The notes: generated by a model from the letters alone, not told the origin. Positions 2,210 through 6,421 are shown, numbered from the stretch's first letter. The stretch is DNA of 22,932 nt from Candidatus Micrarchaeota archaeon (GCA_043813365.1 JBDRLB010000065.1:1-22932), one strand, 5' to 3'. Numbers and translations are program-made.

Positions 2210-2565
2210 ATGATCAGCCTTACCTTCGAACCCTTCGCATTCAGCTGCACCAGTTTTTCTATTGACATCGTTTCCGCTCCTCCTTTCTTTAATTTTACAA
2301 GGGCGGATTTCGAGAAACGGAATGCTGCAATTTTTGCCTTCTTCCGCATCTCCCCGATCCCGAGCACCTTCCCCGGGACCAATGCGGTTTCGCCGTCATT
2401 CAGCACCCGTCCCAAACGGTTGAGGTTGACCTCTACCCTCTGCCTCGTGGGCTTCCGCAAGTAAAATGCGGCCCTTCCCCAGATTGCCGCATCGTCCTTC
2501 CTCCCTGCCTTCTCCAAAGTGACCAAGAGCTTCCTCAGACTCTGAATTTCGGTTCCGTGCTTCAT
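2206..2565 (-). CDS. rpl18e: 50S ribosomal protein eL18
   Basis: EVNLNRL...VPGKVLGIG...AAFRFSKSA; start moved to ATG 2565 (MKHGTE, GAGGT upstream) because the longer ORF-track version reads through tRNA-Leu. Confidence 0.96.
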   Translation of the reverse strand: MKHGTEIQSLRKLLVTLEKAGRKDDAAIWGRAAFYLRKPTRQRVEVNLNRLGRVLNDGETALVPGKVLGIGEMRKKAKIAAFRFSKSALVKLKKGGAETMSIEKLVQLNAKGSKVRLII

Positions 2566-2600
2566 CTTCAAAACCTCAAATATGAATGCAGGGGCTGGGA

Positions 2601-2703
2601 CACTCATGCCAAGCCCCGCAACAAAAAATATCGGCCGAAGGCCGCAAAAATGTTTTCTTTGGCGGCGCCACCGCCTTTCTTTCCAAAAAGAAAGGCAAGG
2701 CAA
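2601..2703 (-). other. tRNA-Leu T-loop intron at 59/60 (103 nt)
   Basis: Strict BHB: CUGGG/CCCAG, central UUCA/UGAG, bulges AAU and UGU, intron helix UGCC/GGCA. Confidence 0.9.
2635..2696 (+). repeat. Small palindromic element, copy 1 (inside tRNA-Leu T-loop intron)
   Basis: CCGAAGGC..TTTTCTTTGG..GCCTTTCTTT-CCAA-AAAGAAAGGC. Confidence 0.7.
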
Positions 2704-2750
2704 TTTGAACCCAGGCATCCCTACGGAACAGAGACCTCAACCCTGCGCAT

Positions 2751-2803
2751 TTGGCCAAAAATGCTCGAGCCGTTCTGTCCAAAAGGTCGGCTTTTCATTT
2801 TTT
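2751..2803 (-). other. tRNA-Leu D-loop intron (53 nt)
   Basis: Central helix GGUC/GGCC, two AAA segments, intron helix AAAAAUG/CAUUUUU (relaxed BHB). Confidence 0.85.
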
Positions 2804-3058
2804 TTGACCAGGCTCTGCCACCCCTGCAATAAACTTCAACGCCTCCTCGTCCGTCAATCCCTCGAAAGCGATTTCCTTCTCCCGAGATTTCGCGCCCTTG
2901 AGCAGGAATACTTCCCTTCCGGAGAGCTTTTCCAGCTCCGAAAGGAGTTCCCTGTTTGCCCTCCCGCCATTTGCGGGGCTTTTCAGGCGCACGATTATTT
3001 TCCCTTCCTTCATTCCGATCCCAAAACGCTTCGCGTTCGGGACCGCCTTTAATTCCAT
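2795..3058 (-). CDS. DUF167 / YggU family protein
   Basis: VPNAKR...VRLKSPANGGRANRELL...LLKGAKSREKEI; start overlaps the rpoD stop (TAATG). Confidence 0.9.
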   Translation of the reverse strand: MELKAVPNAKRFGIGMKEGKIIVRLKSPANGGRANRELLSELEKLSGREVFLLKGAKSREKEIAFEGLTDEEALKFIAGVAEPGQKK

Positions 3059-3639
3059 TACTTTATTTCCTTCGATTTGCCGAGCTCAACTGCCTTTTCC
3101 TGCAGCAACTTGAGCCCGCGCAGAAGCTGCTCCTCGGCCGAGAGGTTGTTGAAGCTCTCGACGAAGAACGTGAATTCCGGGCTCTTCTTTTCCGGATCAT
3201 AATTGTAGGATGCGATCGCGCTCTGGAATTTTGCATGCTGCTTGGATGTGCCCTTCGTTACCTTCGCCTCAAGCCGCAATTTCTGGTTCGGCCCCAGCTT
3301 CATTATCGGGATGTTGTCGTTGTAAACCTTAATGCGCTCGTCCGAGCTCTTCAGGTCACGCGAATAGACCATGCAAGGGCCTTCGGCATTGAGAGAGAGC
3401 GTAATTTCAACCTTGTCCGCATAATTCTCCTCGTAAGTAAGGGGCATCATGCCCAGCCTGTTCGCGACGTAGTCGTTGAACATCGCGGAATTGTTCTCGT
3501 AGAAGTCAACATCATCTATTGCGAAAGCCTCAAGGTCGGAAATTATGGAGCGCCTGAGCGCATTCATCATTGCAACTGATGCGCCCTTCACCTTAATTTC
3601 CAGTTTCTGCCTCTCGTTTTTCAGGATGCTGAACTCCAT
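3058..3639 (-). CDS. rpoD: DNA-directed RNA polymerase subunit D (Rpo3), short form
   Basis: NALRRSII...NNSAMFNDYVANRLGMMPL...HAKFQ...FFVESF. Confidence 0.96.
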   Translation of the reverse strand: MEFSILKNERQKLEIKVKGASVAMMNALRRSIISDLEAFAIDDVDFYENNSAMFNDYVANRLGMMPLTYEENYADKVEITLSLNAEGPCMVYSRDLKSSDERIKVYNDNIPIMKLGPNQKLRLEAKVTKGTSKQHAKFQSAIASYNYDPEKKSPEFTFFVESFNNLSAEEQLLRGLKLLQEKAVELGKSKEIK

Positions 3640-3648
3640 TTTATCGCC

Positions 3649-4221
3649 TTATACCCTTCTTCCCCTTTTGCCGCCCGGCCTTTTCGTAGTGTCGGTCGGG
3701 ACCGGCGTAACATCTTCTATCTTGCCTATTCTTAAACCTGACCTTGCAAGCGCCCTGATGGCCGCCTGCGCACCCGAGCCAGGCGTCTTCGTGCCATGCC
3801 CTCCGGGAGCGCGCACGCGTATGTTAATCCCCACAAGCCCCCTTTCCTTCGCCTTCTCAGCTGCCTTGAACGCGGCCTGCATTGCCGCATAGGGCGATCC
3901 CTCTTCGCGGGAATTCTTCACGATCATGCCGCCGCTTCCCTTGGCAATTGTTTCGGCGCCGCTCAAATCCGTTATTGTGATGATTGTGTCATTTTTGGAC
4001 GAATAAATGTGCGCTACCCCCCATTTGCCCTCCTTGGCGATGTATCTCCTCTCGAAGCGGTCGTCCCTCCTTCCAAATGTGCGGGGCGCCTCTTCCACCT
4101 TAATGTCCTCCTTTTTTACTGCTTCAGCTGCCGGCGCATCCGCCTTCACTGGTGCGGTTGGAGCATCGGCTGCCTTTGCCTTCCCTTCCTCCCCTGCGAT
4201 AATTTTTTCCTCAACCATCAA
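3649..4221 (-). CDS. rps11: 30S ribosomal protein uS11 with N-terminal extension
   Basis: [19 protein letters not shown]...[10 protein letters not shown]...GGKRGRRV. Confidence 0.98.
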
Positions 4222-4793
4222 TTCTCACTTTTTCCAGCATTCAACTCGGCCGCATCGGAAATGCCCGCTCCGACGTTTTCCTCCTCCTTCTTTGCGGGTT
4301 TCGGCTGCGCTTCCACCCTGATTGCATGGCCGTACCATTCTATTTTCCCCTCATCCTCGTACTTCACGAGGTAGGATGGGGATGAAATTTTTGTTCCCCC
4401 AACGGCGATATGGCCGTGCGCGATGAACTGCCTTGCCTGCCTGACGCTTTTTGCAAGGTGCTTCTTGTATACGATTGTCTGCAGCCTCCTTTCCAGGATG
4501 TCCCGGACTGTAAGCGAGAGCACATCGTCTAGTGAGATGTTTTCCTTCTTGATGAGGAATTTCTTGATCCTGTTTATCAGCTTTTTGGAGCGTTCCTCAA
4601 CGTCCGTCCCCTTGCCTGAAAGGAGCCTCCTGGCCTCGCGCCGAATCTTCCTTAGCCGGGTCTGCATTTTCCAAACCTCCCTCGCATTTTTCAGCCCGTA
4701 TTCGTCCGCTATCTTCCTCTCGGTCTCGATCCGGGTCTTGTCCCAGAGCTTCTTCGGTTTTTCGTATGATTTCCTTAAACGCTTGGCACCCAT
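4218..4793 (-). CDS. rps4: 30S ribosomal protein uS4
   Basis: [11 protein letters not shown]...LERRLQTIV...[10 protein letters not shown]. Confidence 0.98.
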
Positions 4794-4807
4794 ATTGGCT
4801 CACATTA

Positions 4808-5491
4808 TTATTTCTTCTTCTCTGCAGCACCTGCCTTGCCCTGCGCTCCAGCAGCTGCTGCCGCTTTCTGTTCCTTGATCGCCTTCTTCATGACTCCAAC
4901 AGTGAATCCGGACCTTCCGGTTGTCCTTGAGTGCTGGCCCCTCACCCTCTGGCCCAATGAGAACCTCCAGCCCTTGTATGTGTGCATGTCCTTCTCATTC
5001 TGGATGTCCTGCTTTTGCACGAATGTGAGGTCGTTCATCAGGAGGTGCATGTTCTTTCCCGAATCACGGTCCCTTTGCCTGTTCAGCATGTAGCCCTTGA
5101 TTCCATGCGAGGCGGGGCTCTTGATTATTTCATCGAGCCGGTCCATCTGTTCCTCGGAAAGGTCGCCCACCCTCGTTTTCTTGTTGAGCTTCAATTCCCT
5201 GAAAATTATTTTTTCGAGCGCCCTTGCAAGTGTCGGCCCGATGCCCCTTACCCTCATAAGTGCCTTGAAGAGCGTGAAATGGCCATCCAGGTCCTTGCCT
5301 GCGACGCGCACGATTCCCCTGAAATTAGGGTTCTCATCCCCTTGCTGGGAAACTGCCGGCTTCTGGAATTGGGGCTTTGCCTGCTGCGGCGCATTCTGGG
5401 GCCTTTGCGAGGGCTGCGGCTTTTGCTGGTTTGCAATCGGCTTTCCCTGCTGTGCACCCTGTTGCGGCTTTCCCTGCTGCATATCGGCCAT
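4808..5491 (-). CDS. rps13: 30S ribosomal protein uS13 with Gln/Pro-rich N-terminal extension
   Basis: FRGIVRVAGKDLDG...RVRGQHSRTTGRSG. Confidence 0.98.
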   Translation of the reverse strand: MADMQQGKPQQGAQQGKPIANQQKPQPSQRPQNAPQQAKPQFQKPAVSQQGDENPNFRGIVRVAGKDLDGHFTLFKALMRVRGIGPTLARALEKIIFRELKLNKKTRVGDLSEEQMDRLDEIIKSPASHGIKGYMLNRQRDRDSGKNMHLLMNDLTFVQKQDIQNEKDMHTYKGWRFSLGQRVRGQHSRTTGRSGFTVGVMKKAIKEQKAAAAAGAQGKAGAAEKKK

Positions 5492-5531
5492 CGTTTATAC
5501 CCCGTACTGAAATTGAGCGCCGGGACTGGGA

Positions 5532-5619
5532 TACTCTTTCCCCGGACACGGCATGAAAAAAATTTCTGGAATTTACCATTCCAAAATATAGTTGTCAGGC
5601 AACCTCGTGCAAGAGGAAT
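5532..5619 (-). other. tRNA-Ser T-loop intron at 59/60 (88 nt)
   Basis: Central UUCG/AGAG (3 of 4 pairs), bulges AAA and UAU, intron helix UUCCUC/GGGGAA. Confidence 0.85.
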
Positions 5620-5651
5620 TTCGAACCCAGGAGCCCTTGCGGGCACCAGCT

Positions 5652-5686
5652 TTCTCCTTTTTTTCTGCCTTAACGCAGAAGAAAGC
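5652..5686 (-). other. tRNA-Ser anticodon-loop intron (35 nt)
   Basis: Insert between CTGGAA and AGCTGG with inner hairpin UUCUGC/GCAGAA; central BHB helix only partly paired, so boundaries may shift by a few nt. Confidence 0.75.
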
Positions 5687-5726
5687 TTCCAGGCTGGCGC
5701 TTTAACCACTCAGCCATCCCGGCGAA

Positions 5727-5774
5727 CCTTTTCTTTTTGGAAAAGAAAAGCTTCACCAAAAGAAAAGCCTTCGG
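5727..5774 (-). repeat. Small palindromic element, copy 2 (tRNA-Ser 5' leader)
   Basis: Minus strand CCGAAGGC-TTTTCTTTTGG-TGAAG-CTTTTCTTTT-CCA-AAAAGAAAAGG. Confidence 0.7.
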
Positions 5775-5823
5775 AAAACAAGTTTCCTCAGGCGTTCGTA
5801 GGCTATTTTTATCGGAATTAGGG

Positions 5824-5831
5824 TTTATAAG
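5824..5831 (-). promoter_or_regulatory. Probable TATA box of the tRNA-Ser/rps13 operon
   Basis: CTTATAAA on the minus strand about 100 nt upstream of the tRNA 5' end. Confidence 0.5.
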
Positions 5832-5875
5832 CGTTTGTTTTGGAGTTGGTTTCTTTGGCGCGCCGCTTCCGCTGT

Positions 5876-6421
5876 TCAAGCAATTCCTTCCAAAACTTTC
5901 TCCGCCCTCCTAGAAATCGCAAATTCCGCCTGTGCCGGAGTGAGAAGGAACAATGTTGACGCAATCGCAATGATTTCCTGCGGGGATTTCAGTTCAAATG
6001 CATTGGTTGCCCTAGTTGTAAAAACAAATTTCGCATCCAGCTTCAAGCACCTTTTAATGAAGTTCCTTGTTTGGCTGATCAATTTGGCGCGGTAGATGAA
6101 ATTGGCTTTCAGGAATTCAGATATGGGGATTTCGAAAACGGTTTCCCTCTCAACCGCTTCCCTTATCAGCCCCTCATCCCTGTAGAAATCCCTTGCAGAT
6201 AGCGGGTTGCACAGCAGCGGCTTTTTCTGCTTGATGCAATTCCTCAAAAGTTCCGGATCCGTTGACTGGATGGAAATCAGCTCCCTCGAATTGGCTGCAT
6301 TCAAATCCTTTCCGCTTCTTAGGTCAATTATTTTTGCGGTAAGAACACGCGAAAAACCCAGCTTCAACGCTTCCGCTTCCAATCCCTTGTTTTGGAGGTT
6401 GAGGTCGATGTACTCACTCAT
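5876..6421 (-). CDS. rnp3: RNase P protein component Rpp30
   Basis: FEIPISEFL...FVFTTRATNAFELKSPQEIIA matches the Rpp30 C-terminal motif; near rpl15e. Confidence 0.85.
   Translation of the reverse strand: MSEYIDLNLQNKGLEAEALKLGFSRVLTAKIIDLRSGKDLNAANSRELISIQSTDPELLRNCIKQKKPLLCNPLSARDFYRDEGLIREAVERETVFEIPISEFLKANFIYRAKLISQTRNFIKRCLKLDAKFVFTTRATNAFELKSPQEIIAIASTLFLLTPAQAEFAISRRAEKVLEGIA

Follow-up and report, generated by a model that had tools for sequence, protein, structure and literature searches.

Intrastrand triplex DNA repeats of bacteria, namely the PIT, BoxC and TMECO elements, were reportedly described by Hoyne and co-workers in 2000. Here, we analyse a comparable short repeat in a Candidatus Micrarchaeota archaeon, encountered as two copies in a stretch of 22,932 nucleotides (GCA_043813365.1, JBDRLB010000065.1:1-22932; 22.9 kb, hereafter the window), which is the whole of contig C65 in a genome (G000) of 1.34 Mb, 78 contigs and 88.6% completeness. 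One copy lies in the T-loop intron of a tRNA-Leu gene and the other in the 5' leader of a tRNA-Ser gene. An initial annotation of the window, made from the sequence alone, had joined both copies in a single three-block palindromic motif confined to disposable parts of tRNA precursors. We give an even chance to the explanation that the window copies, assigned below to subtypes A and B2, are dispersed fold-back triplex repeats of Micrarchaeota, 45-60 nt in length, which are non-autonomous, belong to the DNA level and persist in parts of transcripts that are excised.

In the accessible parts of Holder et al. (2015, PMC4666352), the PIT, BoxC and TMECO elements are dispersed in hundreds of genomes, sometimes as palindromic pairs, form triplexes in vitro, are linked to local rearrangement and have no promoter or terminator activity. 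Like these elements as set out there, the Micrarchaeota repeats have three consecutive tracts on one strand (in the bacterial elements a pyrimidine stem, a purine stem and a mirror purine stem, with a loop between each and the next), a complementary strand that falls into the other triplex class, many copies, inverted pairs and a link to rearrangement, with no partner gene or known function. They differ in being archaeal and A/T-rich where the bacterial repeats are G/C-rich, and in having hairpin-forming linkers of up to 20 nt where the ITxF search for PIT elements, in the portion of its description at hand, took loops of 1-6 nt. In addition, they sit mostly in stable-RNA genes with a fixed orientation to the exon, whereas TMECO, according to the same partial source, is intergenic and unrelated to the orientation or function of neighbouring genes. 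In bacteria, intrastrand triplex repeats are known only as intergenic elements linked to instability, and the present family would extend this kind of repeat to archaea and to the inside of essential genes, with a fixed orientation toward RNA processing sites. No published description of these Micrarchaeota repeats was found in a search of the full-text literature, whose scope left aside subscription journals and supplements.

Archaeal tRNA introns provide a second comparison. As in the transposed tRNA introns of Thermoproteales (Fujishima et al. 2010, cited through the accessible part of PMC4033280) and in ARMAN-2, similar introns recur across tRNA species, and the likeness extends to T-loop introns at position 59/60, several introns per gene and a broad-specificity endonuclease (PMC3239211 in part, on the epsilon2 endonuclease; a candidate in the present genome). 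The examined parts of PMC4033280 and PMC3239211 describe no repeat unit, mirror tract or triplex signature. The ARMAN-2 introns tested in the latter, as far as its accessible part goes, measure 13 and 25 nt, and the Micrarchaeota units occur also outside introns and outside tRNA genes.

A genome-wide repeat family with two subtypes

Each unit of the family consists of a pyrimidine tract (T1), a linker, a second pyrimidine tract (T2), a short loop and lastly a purine tract (T3). Over 7-13 bp, T2 pairs perfectly with T3 in a hairpin whose loop has 0-8 nt (typically 2-5), and the linker between T1 and T2 measures 5-20 nt and is structured: in type A it is a GC-rich hairpin, in type B it contains a small CCC..GGG hairpin, and in subtype B2 it is 5-8 nt long. 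The end of a type-A unit carries the word GGCAAGGC; its inverse stands at the opposite intron end, and the two pair. Full elements are composed of two inverted units around a small central hairpin and are closed by a terminal helix (for example on contigs C31, C40, C11 and C76), and they occupy T-loop introns at the same position in different tRNAs. Single units, including the arm in tRNA-Leu and the copy in the tRNA-Ser leader, are halves of the full element.

Profile searches with nhmmer gave 38 matches in G000, 28 of type A (E up to 9e-8) and 10 of type B (E up to 8e-8), which form 31 clusters, and a loose hairpin expression found 27 loci. The gapped pattern TTTCTTT..TTTCTTT..AAAGAAA matched 32 times, against none in each of 20 block-shuffled genomes. 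The dispersed palindromic repeat family suggested by the initial annotation therefore exists, and its expectation of further copies held both in the genome, scanned with the profiles, and in the relatives, scanned with the gapped pattern. The copies and associated features in the window are as follows.

2645-2702, plus strand: type-A arm in the tRNA-Leu intron, with T1 at 2653-2662, a GC-rich linker hairpin at about 2661-2676, T2 at 2674-2682, a loop, T3 at 2687-2695 and a strand of the terminal helix at 2696-2703
2632-2644, plus strand: small GC hairpin containing block 1 (CCGAAGGC), its stem CGGC/GCCG kept and its loop different in the relative G005
5724-5766, minus strand: type-B2 module in the 5' leader of tRNA-Ser, with T1 at 5756-5766, a 5-nt linker and the T2/T3 hairpin at 5728-5750, followed by GTTC and by the first base of the tRNA (G1)
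5767-5774, minus strand: CCGAAGGC beside the leader module, not a feature of the family
5850-5866, plus strand: truncated type-A arm (T1 and half of the linker), between the stop codon of the upstream open reading frame (ORF) at 5876 and the tRNA-Ser promoter region
5824-5830, minus strand: possible TATA box, TTATAAA in the sense of the tRNA, 101-107 nt before G1 of tRNA-Ser and kept in G002

Every letter of the blocks originally named was found in place: on the plus strand, the Leu copy has CCGAAGGC at 2635-2642, TTTTCTTTGG at 2653-2662 and the hairpin at 2675-2694, and on the minus strand, the Ser copy has CCGAAGGC at 5767-5774, TTTTCTTTTGG at 5756-5766 and the hairpin at 5728-5750. However, the three blocks are not of equal standing. 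T1 and the CTTTCTTT/AAAGAAAG hairpin (T2/T3), that is, blocks 2 and 3 of the original motif, define the genome-wide family, but block 1 does not. CCGAAGGC occurs 84 times in the genome, adjoins the pyrimidine tract of the family only at the two window copies, and is kept neither in the orthologous Leu intron of G005 nor in the orthologous Ser leaders of G002 and G004. Moreover, the two copies do not represent one three-block motif: the Leu copy belongs to subtype A and the Ser copy to subtype B2. With both window copies among the profile seeds, the Leu arm, whose hairpin is CCTTTCTTT/AAAGAAAGG, scored 59.6 bits (E 2e-16) against a type-A profile built from 18 copies dominated by other loci, and the Ser copy scored 31.8 bits (E 8e-8, 5721-5777) against the type-B profile; against the type-A profile the Ser copy gave a match of 16.3 bits confined to the hairpin.

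A mere chance likeness of two low-complexity stretches carries almost no probability. The tracts are indeed simple T/C and A/G runs, and chance does account for block 1. For blocks 2 and 3 it is ruled out by the shuffled genomes (32 matches vs 0 in 20 shuffles), by the reversed pattern with the purine tract first (26 vs 489 matches in 40 genomes) and by the profile E-values of 2e-16 and 8e-8.

The partial third copy that had been proposed near 5850-5866 proved real, TTTCTTTGGCGCGCCGC being found at this position as a truncated type-A arm. Its 11-mer TTTCTTTGGCG has ten occurrences in the genome, nine of which are full type-A arms and the tenth this stretch, and four of the five genomic occurrences of its 13-mer lie in full arms; by nhmmer, it scored only 1.1 bits. 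The GC hairpin at 2632-2644 probably stands where the linker hairpin of a decayed second Leu arm would be, judged against the full pairs on C31 and C40. Of the 27 aligned type-A arms, 11 have the palindrome GGCGCC (2663-2668 in the window) in their linker and the remaining arms differ from it by one letter; it could serve as a loop-loop contact or as a protein or restriction site.

Signature of an intrastrand triple helix

T1 is neither a direct repeat of T2 nor complementary to anything, but mirrors T2 and is therefore the parallel complement of T3, as is required of a pyrimidine third strand. Among 204 pyrimidine/purine hairpins from G000 and from loci fetched in five other genera (the fetched loci having been selected with a pattern that requires the symmetric core in each of the three tracts), 175 are accompanied within 45 nt by a mirror of T2 at least 7 nt long, whereas shuffled flanks gave a mean of 13.8 and a maximum of 21 in the same test. 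The mirror match was longer than the direct match in 113 of these hairpins and shorter in nine; in the flank on the far side of T3, it was longer in 26 and shorter in 34. In G000 alone, where hairpins were collected with no demand on T1, a mirror was found in 35 of 52, and the mirror beat the direct match in 24 cases vs one. The mirror also follows variation in the tracts, tracking run-length variants around the single C as well as extra C's (TTTCTT/TTCTTT, TTCTTTCC/CTTTCTTC, and TTTCTC, with their purine partners).

The pairing is equally regular when single positions are scored. At four positions of the parallel T1.T3 alignment in 27 type-A arms, 107 of 108 cells (99.1%) hold U.A or C.G, compared with 69-75% when the tracts are slid against each other, and the T2/T3 hairpin is paired in 92.4% of cells vs 61-72% when slid. 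Thirteen of the 27 arms are altered on both sides at two T1.T3 positions, which amounts essentially to a single subfamily split. In the Ser leader orthologues of G002 and G004, the C or G stands one position away from its place in G000, and this in all three tracts together (from 4,4 to 3,5, 5,3 and 3,5). Thus, the parallel pyrimidine/purine match that the initial annotation had noticed holds across the family and covaries, and the traits expected of triplex repeats, a three-tract rule on one strand (175/204 hairpins; 99.1% of cells) and copies far above scrambled sequence, are both found. Three-way covariation would constitute natural evidence for a triple helix.

Read on its complementary strand, each unit shows the purine-motif arrangement of a hairpin and then a mirror purine tract. 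The Leu transcript reads its type-A arm in this reversed sense, hairpin first and mirror purine tract last, and the hairpin-first Leu arms of G000, G002 and G004 also obey the mirror rule. As judged from the sequence, the triplex signature is legible on both strands.

Placement at stable-RNA genes and orientation toward the exon

By reading, 30 of the 38 profile matches are associated with tRNA genes: 16 type-A arms lie within tRNA genes, five type-A arms lie 33-70 nt behind a tRNA, and nine of the ten type-B units are tRNA-associated, with the copies on C3 and C17 probably forming one locus split by the assembly. The expected enrichment at tRNA loci was confirmed by an automatic check, in which 22 of 35 modules lay within 150 nt of tRNA evidence compared with 1.3% of random positions, its misses including genes at contig ends. 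ARAGORN with introns allowed reported 23 tRNAs in the genome, missed most repeat-bearing genes and left 115 of 175 modules with no ARAGORN tRNA in their sequence; because of these misses, the tRNA contexts rest on partial Rfam matches, a stem-matching script and reading.

None of the 38 profile copies falls within coding sequence or a mature tRNA part. The claim that the element occurs only in disposable parts of tRNA precursors nevertheless goes too far, since eight of the 38 copies lie elsewhere in untranslated or intergenic DNA, and copies are also present in the ribosomal RNA operon of G023, a member of another family. The eight copies are located as follows.

C7 28143: 20 nt upstream of a start codon
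C44 20838: beginning at a stop codon
C56, C70 14394, C47 11966, C42 33915 and C42 37637: five further non-tRNA copies
C74: behind a gene ending in a PIP-box-like (PCNA-interacting protein box) motif

The rRNA context was examined in G023 and G015, because the 16S and 23S genes are unassembled in G000; beside the 5S rRNA gene of G000 there is no repeat. One G023 unit follows the spacer tRNA-Ala of the rRNA operon at a distance of 6 nt, and another is found inside the 23S gene. In the same operon (G023:C1:680988-687599), the matches extend over 2205 nt for 16S (model of 1478 positions) and 3687 nt for 23S (model of 2987 positions), and both genes therefore carry insertions; within one of the 23S insertions lies a repeat unit, and its linker pairs with a word further downstream.

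Every single unit that could be placed, by reading rather than by a scripted count, has its hairpin toward the exon and its third tract away from it. Where a unit immediately follows a 5' splice site or the 3' end of a tRNA, as the Leu copy does, the transcript reads it hairpin-first; where it precedes a 3' splice site or G1, as the Ser copy does, it is read T1-first. The opposite orientation of the two window copies had been taken as an argument for a DNA element, but it follows instead from this exon-facing rule.

Such an arrangement brings in the possibility of an RNA-level module, in which a transcript in the T1-first sense would fold into a U.A-U and C+.G-C helix just upstream of a cut, by RNase P at G1 or by the splicing endonuclease at a 3' splice site, and would bury the 3' end of the released leader, spacer or intron or help to place the cut; we regard this as possible, if doubtful. 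The Ser leader module terminates 4 nt upstream of G1, where RNase P cleavage is predicted, and has a fold z-score of -3.8. At two other class-II tRNAs (C13 and C7), sister copies found by the pattern scan stop 3-4 nt short of G1, and leader copies 3-6 nt before G1 are known in total from three G000 tRNAs, two G023 tRNAs and one Iainarchaeum record (L135). G000 encodes an RNase P RNA, the three tracts covary in orthologous Ser leaders, and pairing is possible between the B2 linker and the 4-5 nt that follow T3, which by geometric reasoning would let T1 join T2 across the deep groove. The sequence TTATAAA at 5824-5830 may be the promoter element of tRNA-Ser and, if it is used, the whole module would be transcribed as leader. 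However, about half of the single copies in G000 (including the Leu copy) and the placeable copies of G016 are hairpin-first and would offer a single U-rich tract, yet they keep the mirror rule and stay conserved; the decayed arm of the Leu intron is the very one that would form the U.A-U helix; and tRNA-Ser seems to have its own promoter, so that the protected product would be a leader of about 75 nt.

The layout of the Ser leader recalls the triple helix of MALAT1 and MEN-beta ENE+A (ENE, element for nuclear expression), for which the accessible part of a review (Brown 2020, PMC7583470) gives U-rich tracts with C/G, an encoded A-rich tract and RNase P acting at a tRNA-like structure. Likewise, the leader has two U-rich tracts with C, an encoded A-rich tract with G and a predicted RNase P site at the tRNA a few nucleotides downstream. 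In contrast to MALAT1 as presented there, the lower stem of the ENE and the A-minor contacts are absent, T2 and T3 are joined by a short loop, 4 nt follow the A-rich tract, the host is an archaeon, and half of the repeat family has the opposite sense in the transcript. We think it unlikely that the T1-first units are the archaeal counterpart of the MALAT1 triple helix, with a capped, long-lived RNA having driven their spread as a small RNA or as an intermediate of intron movement. If true, RNA stability elements built on a triple helix, so far known from eukaryotes and their viruses, would have a first example elsewhere, and tRNA intron gain would have a concrete vehicle.

A minimum-energy fold of 5717-5800 (minus strand) pairs the leader T1 and linker with GTTC and the first seven bases of tRNA-Ser. 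This pairing was rejected, no compensatory change being present between the Ser and Leu leaders. If real, it would compete with the acceptor stem.

We also weighed a signal in duplex DNA, such as a protein-binding promoter element, a terminator or a supercoil-absorbing H-DNA, serving highly transcribed stable-RNA genes. Copies flank tRNA and rRNA genes with the same side toward the gene, T1, linker and T2 by themselves make up a homopyrimidine mirror repeat, the classical H-DNA motif, and T-runs generally look like archaeal terminators. Such a role is nonetheless improbable: most copies are intronic, a place in which a promoter or terminator would do harm, and some of them have sense-strand T-runs of 6-8; the leader copy is downstream of the likely TATA box; the purine T3 on the same strand is conserved, although duplex H-DNA does not need it; and the bacterial PIT elements, in the sections of Holder et al. 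(PMC4666352) at hand, lack promoter or terminator activity.

Distribution in relatives and turnover of orthologous introns

Across 40 genomes of the order (counts include G000), the gapped pattern gave 489 matches in 27, with up to 61 per genome. In a sample of the phylum, it was present in 46 of 151 genomes, patchily by family: 2/2 in f18 and 8/8 in f11, and 1/45 in f13 and 0/25 in f14. Among the matches listed, linkers are lineage-specific and the mirror rule is kept, and public records titled Candidatus Micrarchaeota carry the same kind of repeat. The units of G023 adjoin tRNA 5' and 3' ends or sit in tRNA introns; in G016, at least nine of the 16 B2 units listed could be placed, all of them hairpin-first directly after the exon; and in the Iainarchaeum record L135 one gene has both a unit in its leader, 4 nt before G1, and another in its intron. 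A recognisable and countable repeat unit makes up much of the long introns, leaders and spacers across a whole archaeal class.

The tRNA-Leu gene is syntenic in relatives and allows the fate of single units to be followed. All six members of the genus examined have its T-loop intron, with shared terminal words and differing interiors: no unit in G001, one arm in G000, G005 and G002 (in G002 with a linker insertion), two arms as a complete inverted pair in G004, and in G003 arms whose loops contain nested insertions. In G006, the Leu T-loop intron is short and a B2 unit follows the tRNA at 8 nt; in G007 and G009, the Leu gene is present free of a T-loop insert, and the genus group g3 has no Leu T-loop intron. 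Between G000 and G005, the exons are identical and the arm is conserved at 50 of 50 positions, compared with 43 of 51 in the rest of the intron, 41 of 49 in the D-loop intron and about 71-75% in flanking coding DNA.

Intron gain or expansion had been attributed to the element in the initial annotation. The orthologous Leu introns support a link of the repeats with expansion, but gain caused by the element does not follow, because the T-loop intron is present in all six members with or without a module. In the accessible part of a recent study (10.64898/2026.10.13.758758), no general route is given for the arrival of archaeal tRNA introns and the question remains open. Intron expansion, and possibly gain, should be trackable here event by event, because units differ at orthologous sites and leave duplicated ends.

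Duplicated gene ends flank copies at five loci of G000. A second tRNA 3' end stands behind the unit on C42 and C70 and, in degenerate form, on C2; a second tRNA 5' fragment precedes the unit on C50; and on C74 a gene end is repeated together with its stop codon. The loci are as follows.

C42:10132-10379, second tRNA 3' end
C70:10970-11245, second tRNA 3' end
C2:28603-28800, degenerate second tRNA 3' end
C50:18248-18500, second tRNA 5' fragment
C74:3800-3960, repeated gene end with stop codon

These duplicated ends look like footprints of insertion or intron loss. At C42, C70, C2 and C50, the duplicated tRNA ends around an insert resemble the tRNA fragment and gene that flank a mobile element in Caldiarchaeum, as the accessible part of PMC3293823 describes it; unlike that insert of 1.8 kb, which encodes a recombinase, the inserts found here measure about 100 nt and are non-coding.

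Search for mobile-element partners

The repeats share with repetitive extragenic palindromic (REP) sequences, their doublets (REPINs) and miniature inverted-repeat transposable elements (MITEs) that they are short, dispersed, non-coding palindromes, often in inverted pairs. They differ from these in having no linked REP-associated tyrosine transposase (RAYT) or other transposase, in being mostly intragenic, in their mirror tract and in lacking short target duplications. An origin as a miniature element derived from REP/REPIN or from insertion sequences of the IS200/IS605 group (of the PATE type, palindrome-associated transposable elements, or of the MITE type), with a Y1 (HUH) transposase recognising the single-stranded hairpin in trans, seems very improbable. 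The REPIN-like inverted pairs and a single Y1_Tnp gene in G000 (95.7 bits, C8:179-523) would suit it. However, the hairpins flanking this gene are unrelated to the repeats, and the presence of Y1_Tnp, which was found in 14 of the 40 relatives, does not track them: Y1_Tnp was not matched in the module-rich genomes G004 (37 matches), G005 (27), G022 (37), G023 (33) and G030 (61), and G012, G020, G024 and G025 have a Y1_Tnp gene but no pattern match. Reverse transcriptase was detected in two of the 40 relatives, both with no pattern matches. Contrary to the initial suggestion that copies might flank a nuclease or transposase gene, no nuclease, transposase or reverse-transcriptase partner was found among the genomes searched (completeness 68-97%), short target-site duplications were not seen by reading, and no autonomous parent element was found in these searches.

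The IS200-type transposase gene stands at the start of its contig (C8:1-600), and its end hairpin recurs reverse-complemented at C43:95-140, about 100 nt from a repeat-bearing tRNA-Pro gene, where C8 and C43 probably join.

Weighing the DNA-level explanation

Fold-back triplex repeats of the DNA level, the explanation given an even chance at the outset, would operate as follows. T1 would lie along T3 in parallel on the T2/T3 hairpin, giving T.A-T and C+.G-C triples, and the triplex would form in single-stranded DNA. The repeats would probably spread by stalling and template switching, or by gene conversion at short terminal homologies; they would multiply and turn over at the DNA level, and would persist where the splicing endonuclease or RNase P later cuts the transcript away. 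The constraint is more likely to act on single-stranded DNA than on RNA, because about half of the units are purine-sense in the transcript and still keep the mirror rule. Purine-motif triplexes, according to the accessible part of Holder et al. (2015, PMC4666352), are possible in DNA and not in RNA, and pyrimidine-type intrastrand triplexes are possible in RNA, the latter being a point in favour of an RNA module.

Several points weigh against this explanation. The three-stranded fold, whether in DNA or in RNA, is deduced from the sequence signature, and the copying route, whether stalling with template switching or gene conversion, is likewise deduced. In the fetched loci, only the tract parts beyond the core test the mirror rule, because the search pattern demands the core, and the counts overstate the number of independent events, because copies within a genome share descent. 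The repeats are enriched about 50-fold at tRNA loci over random positions, though ordinary intergenic DNA should tolerate copies, and the hairpin side faces the exon and ends 3-8 nt from the tRNA end; this placement, the principal objection, argues for an RNA-level link that a purely selfish DNA-level repeat does not predict. The Leu arm is as strictly conserved as the exons, which suggests function over mere tolerance. Finally, the duplications beside the copies, put by reading at about 20-30 bp, do not have the form of classical target-site duplications.

The two host tRNA genes and their setting

The window copies lie in a conserved ribosomal-protein cluster on the minus strand, in which translations, read with no family search on the ORFs, give the order Rpp30-like ORF, tRNA-Ser, S13, S4, S11, RpoD, an 87-residue ORF, tRNA-Leu, L18e and L13. 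ARAGORN and Rfam at its gathering score reported no tRNA in the window, and both genes were recognised by minus-strand reading and a stem-matching script, with two introns in each. Parts of the stretch 2500-5900 are represented in five DNA sequencing runs and in none of the RNA runs listed.

2588-2827, minus strand: tRNA-Leu(GAG), with a D-loop intron at about 2757-2805 (49 nt) and a T-loop intron at about 2601-2703 (about 103 nt)
2601-2703, minus strand: T-loop (59/60-type) intron of tRNA-Leu, with an intact type-A arm and a decayed second arm, borders good to 1-2 nt
5519-5723, minus strand: tRNA-Ser(GGA), with an anticodon-loop intron at about 5651-5685 and a T-loop intron of about 88 nt within 5531-5625

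In tRNA-Leu, the acceptor and T stems pair across the 110-nt T-loop gap in the script, and excision of the T-loop intron restores a canonical tRNA with a 7-bp acceptor stem and a 5-bp T stem (script), the cloverleaf having been drawn by hand. The terminal words GCCTTGCC and GGCAAGG recur, together with the intron position, in the T-loop introns of other G000 tRNAs. As to a bulge-helix-bulge motif at the exon-intron borders, the intron ends can pair at six of eight positions (GCCUUGCC with GGCUUGGC), but the minimum-energy fold pairs the 5' end otherwise. The D-loop intron (2757-2805) holds no triplex unit; it is kept in six genus members, occurs in a diverged form in G007, G009, G010, G012 and G015, and is absent from G006, G013 and G014. 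Neither intron of tRNA-Ser contains a module, and the Rfam tRNA score of this gene is only 20.4 bits, covering 5625-5723.

A splicing endonuclease frame of 392 residues with two matches to the catalytic domain tRNA_int_endo (75.6 and 27.5 bits) was found in G000 (C73:2868-3347; L229). It fits the three-unit enzyme described for ARMAN-2 and is a candidate for this type.

A bacterial look-alike

Among the at least 123 stretches matched, a near-constant bacterial sequence of about 38 nt (L077-L160) shows the same three tracts, TTTCTTTT, TTTTCTTT and AAAGAAAA. In the matches listed, its hosts include Paraburkholderia, Xanthomonas, Stenotrophomonas, Aeromonas, Stutzerimonas, flavobacteria and gut Clostridia, and it is often multi-copy or in inverted pairs. 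No Rfam family covers it, and no annotation lies under its BLAST matches in plasmid records. Its 5' flank pairs with the hairpin loop and its linker of 6-7 nt with the 3' flank; because both pairings show compensatory changes, it resembles a pseudoknot with a triple helix. In one record, a near-threshold TwoAYGGAY match lies just upstream of it.

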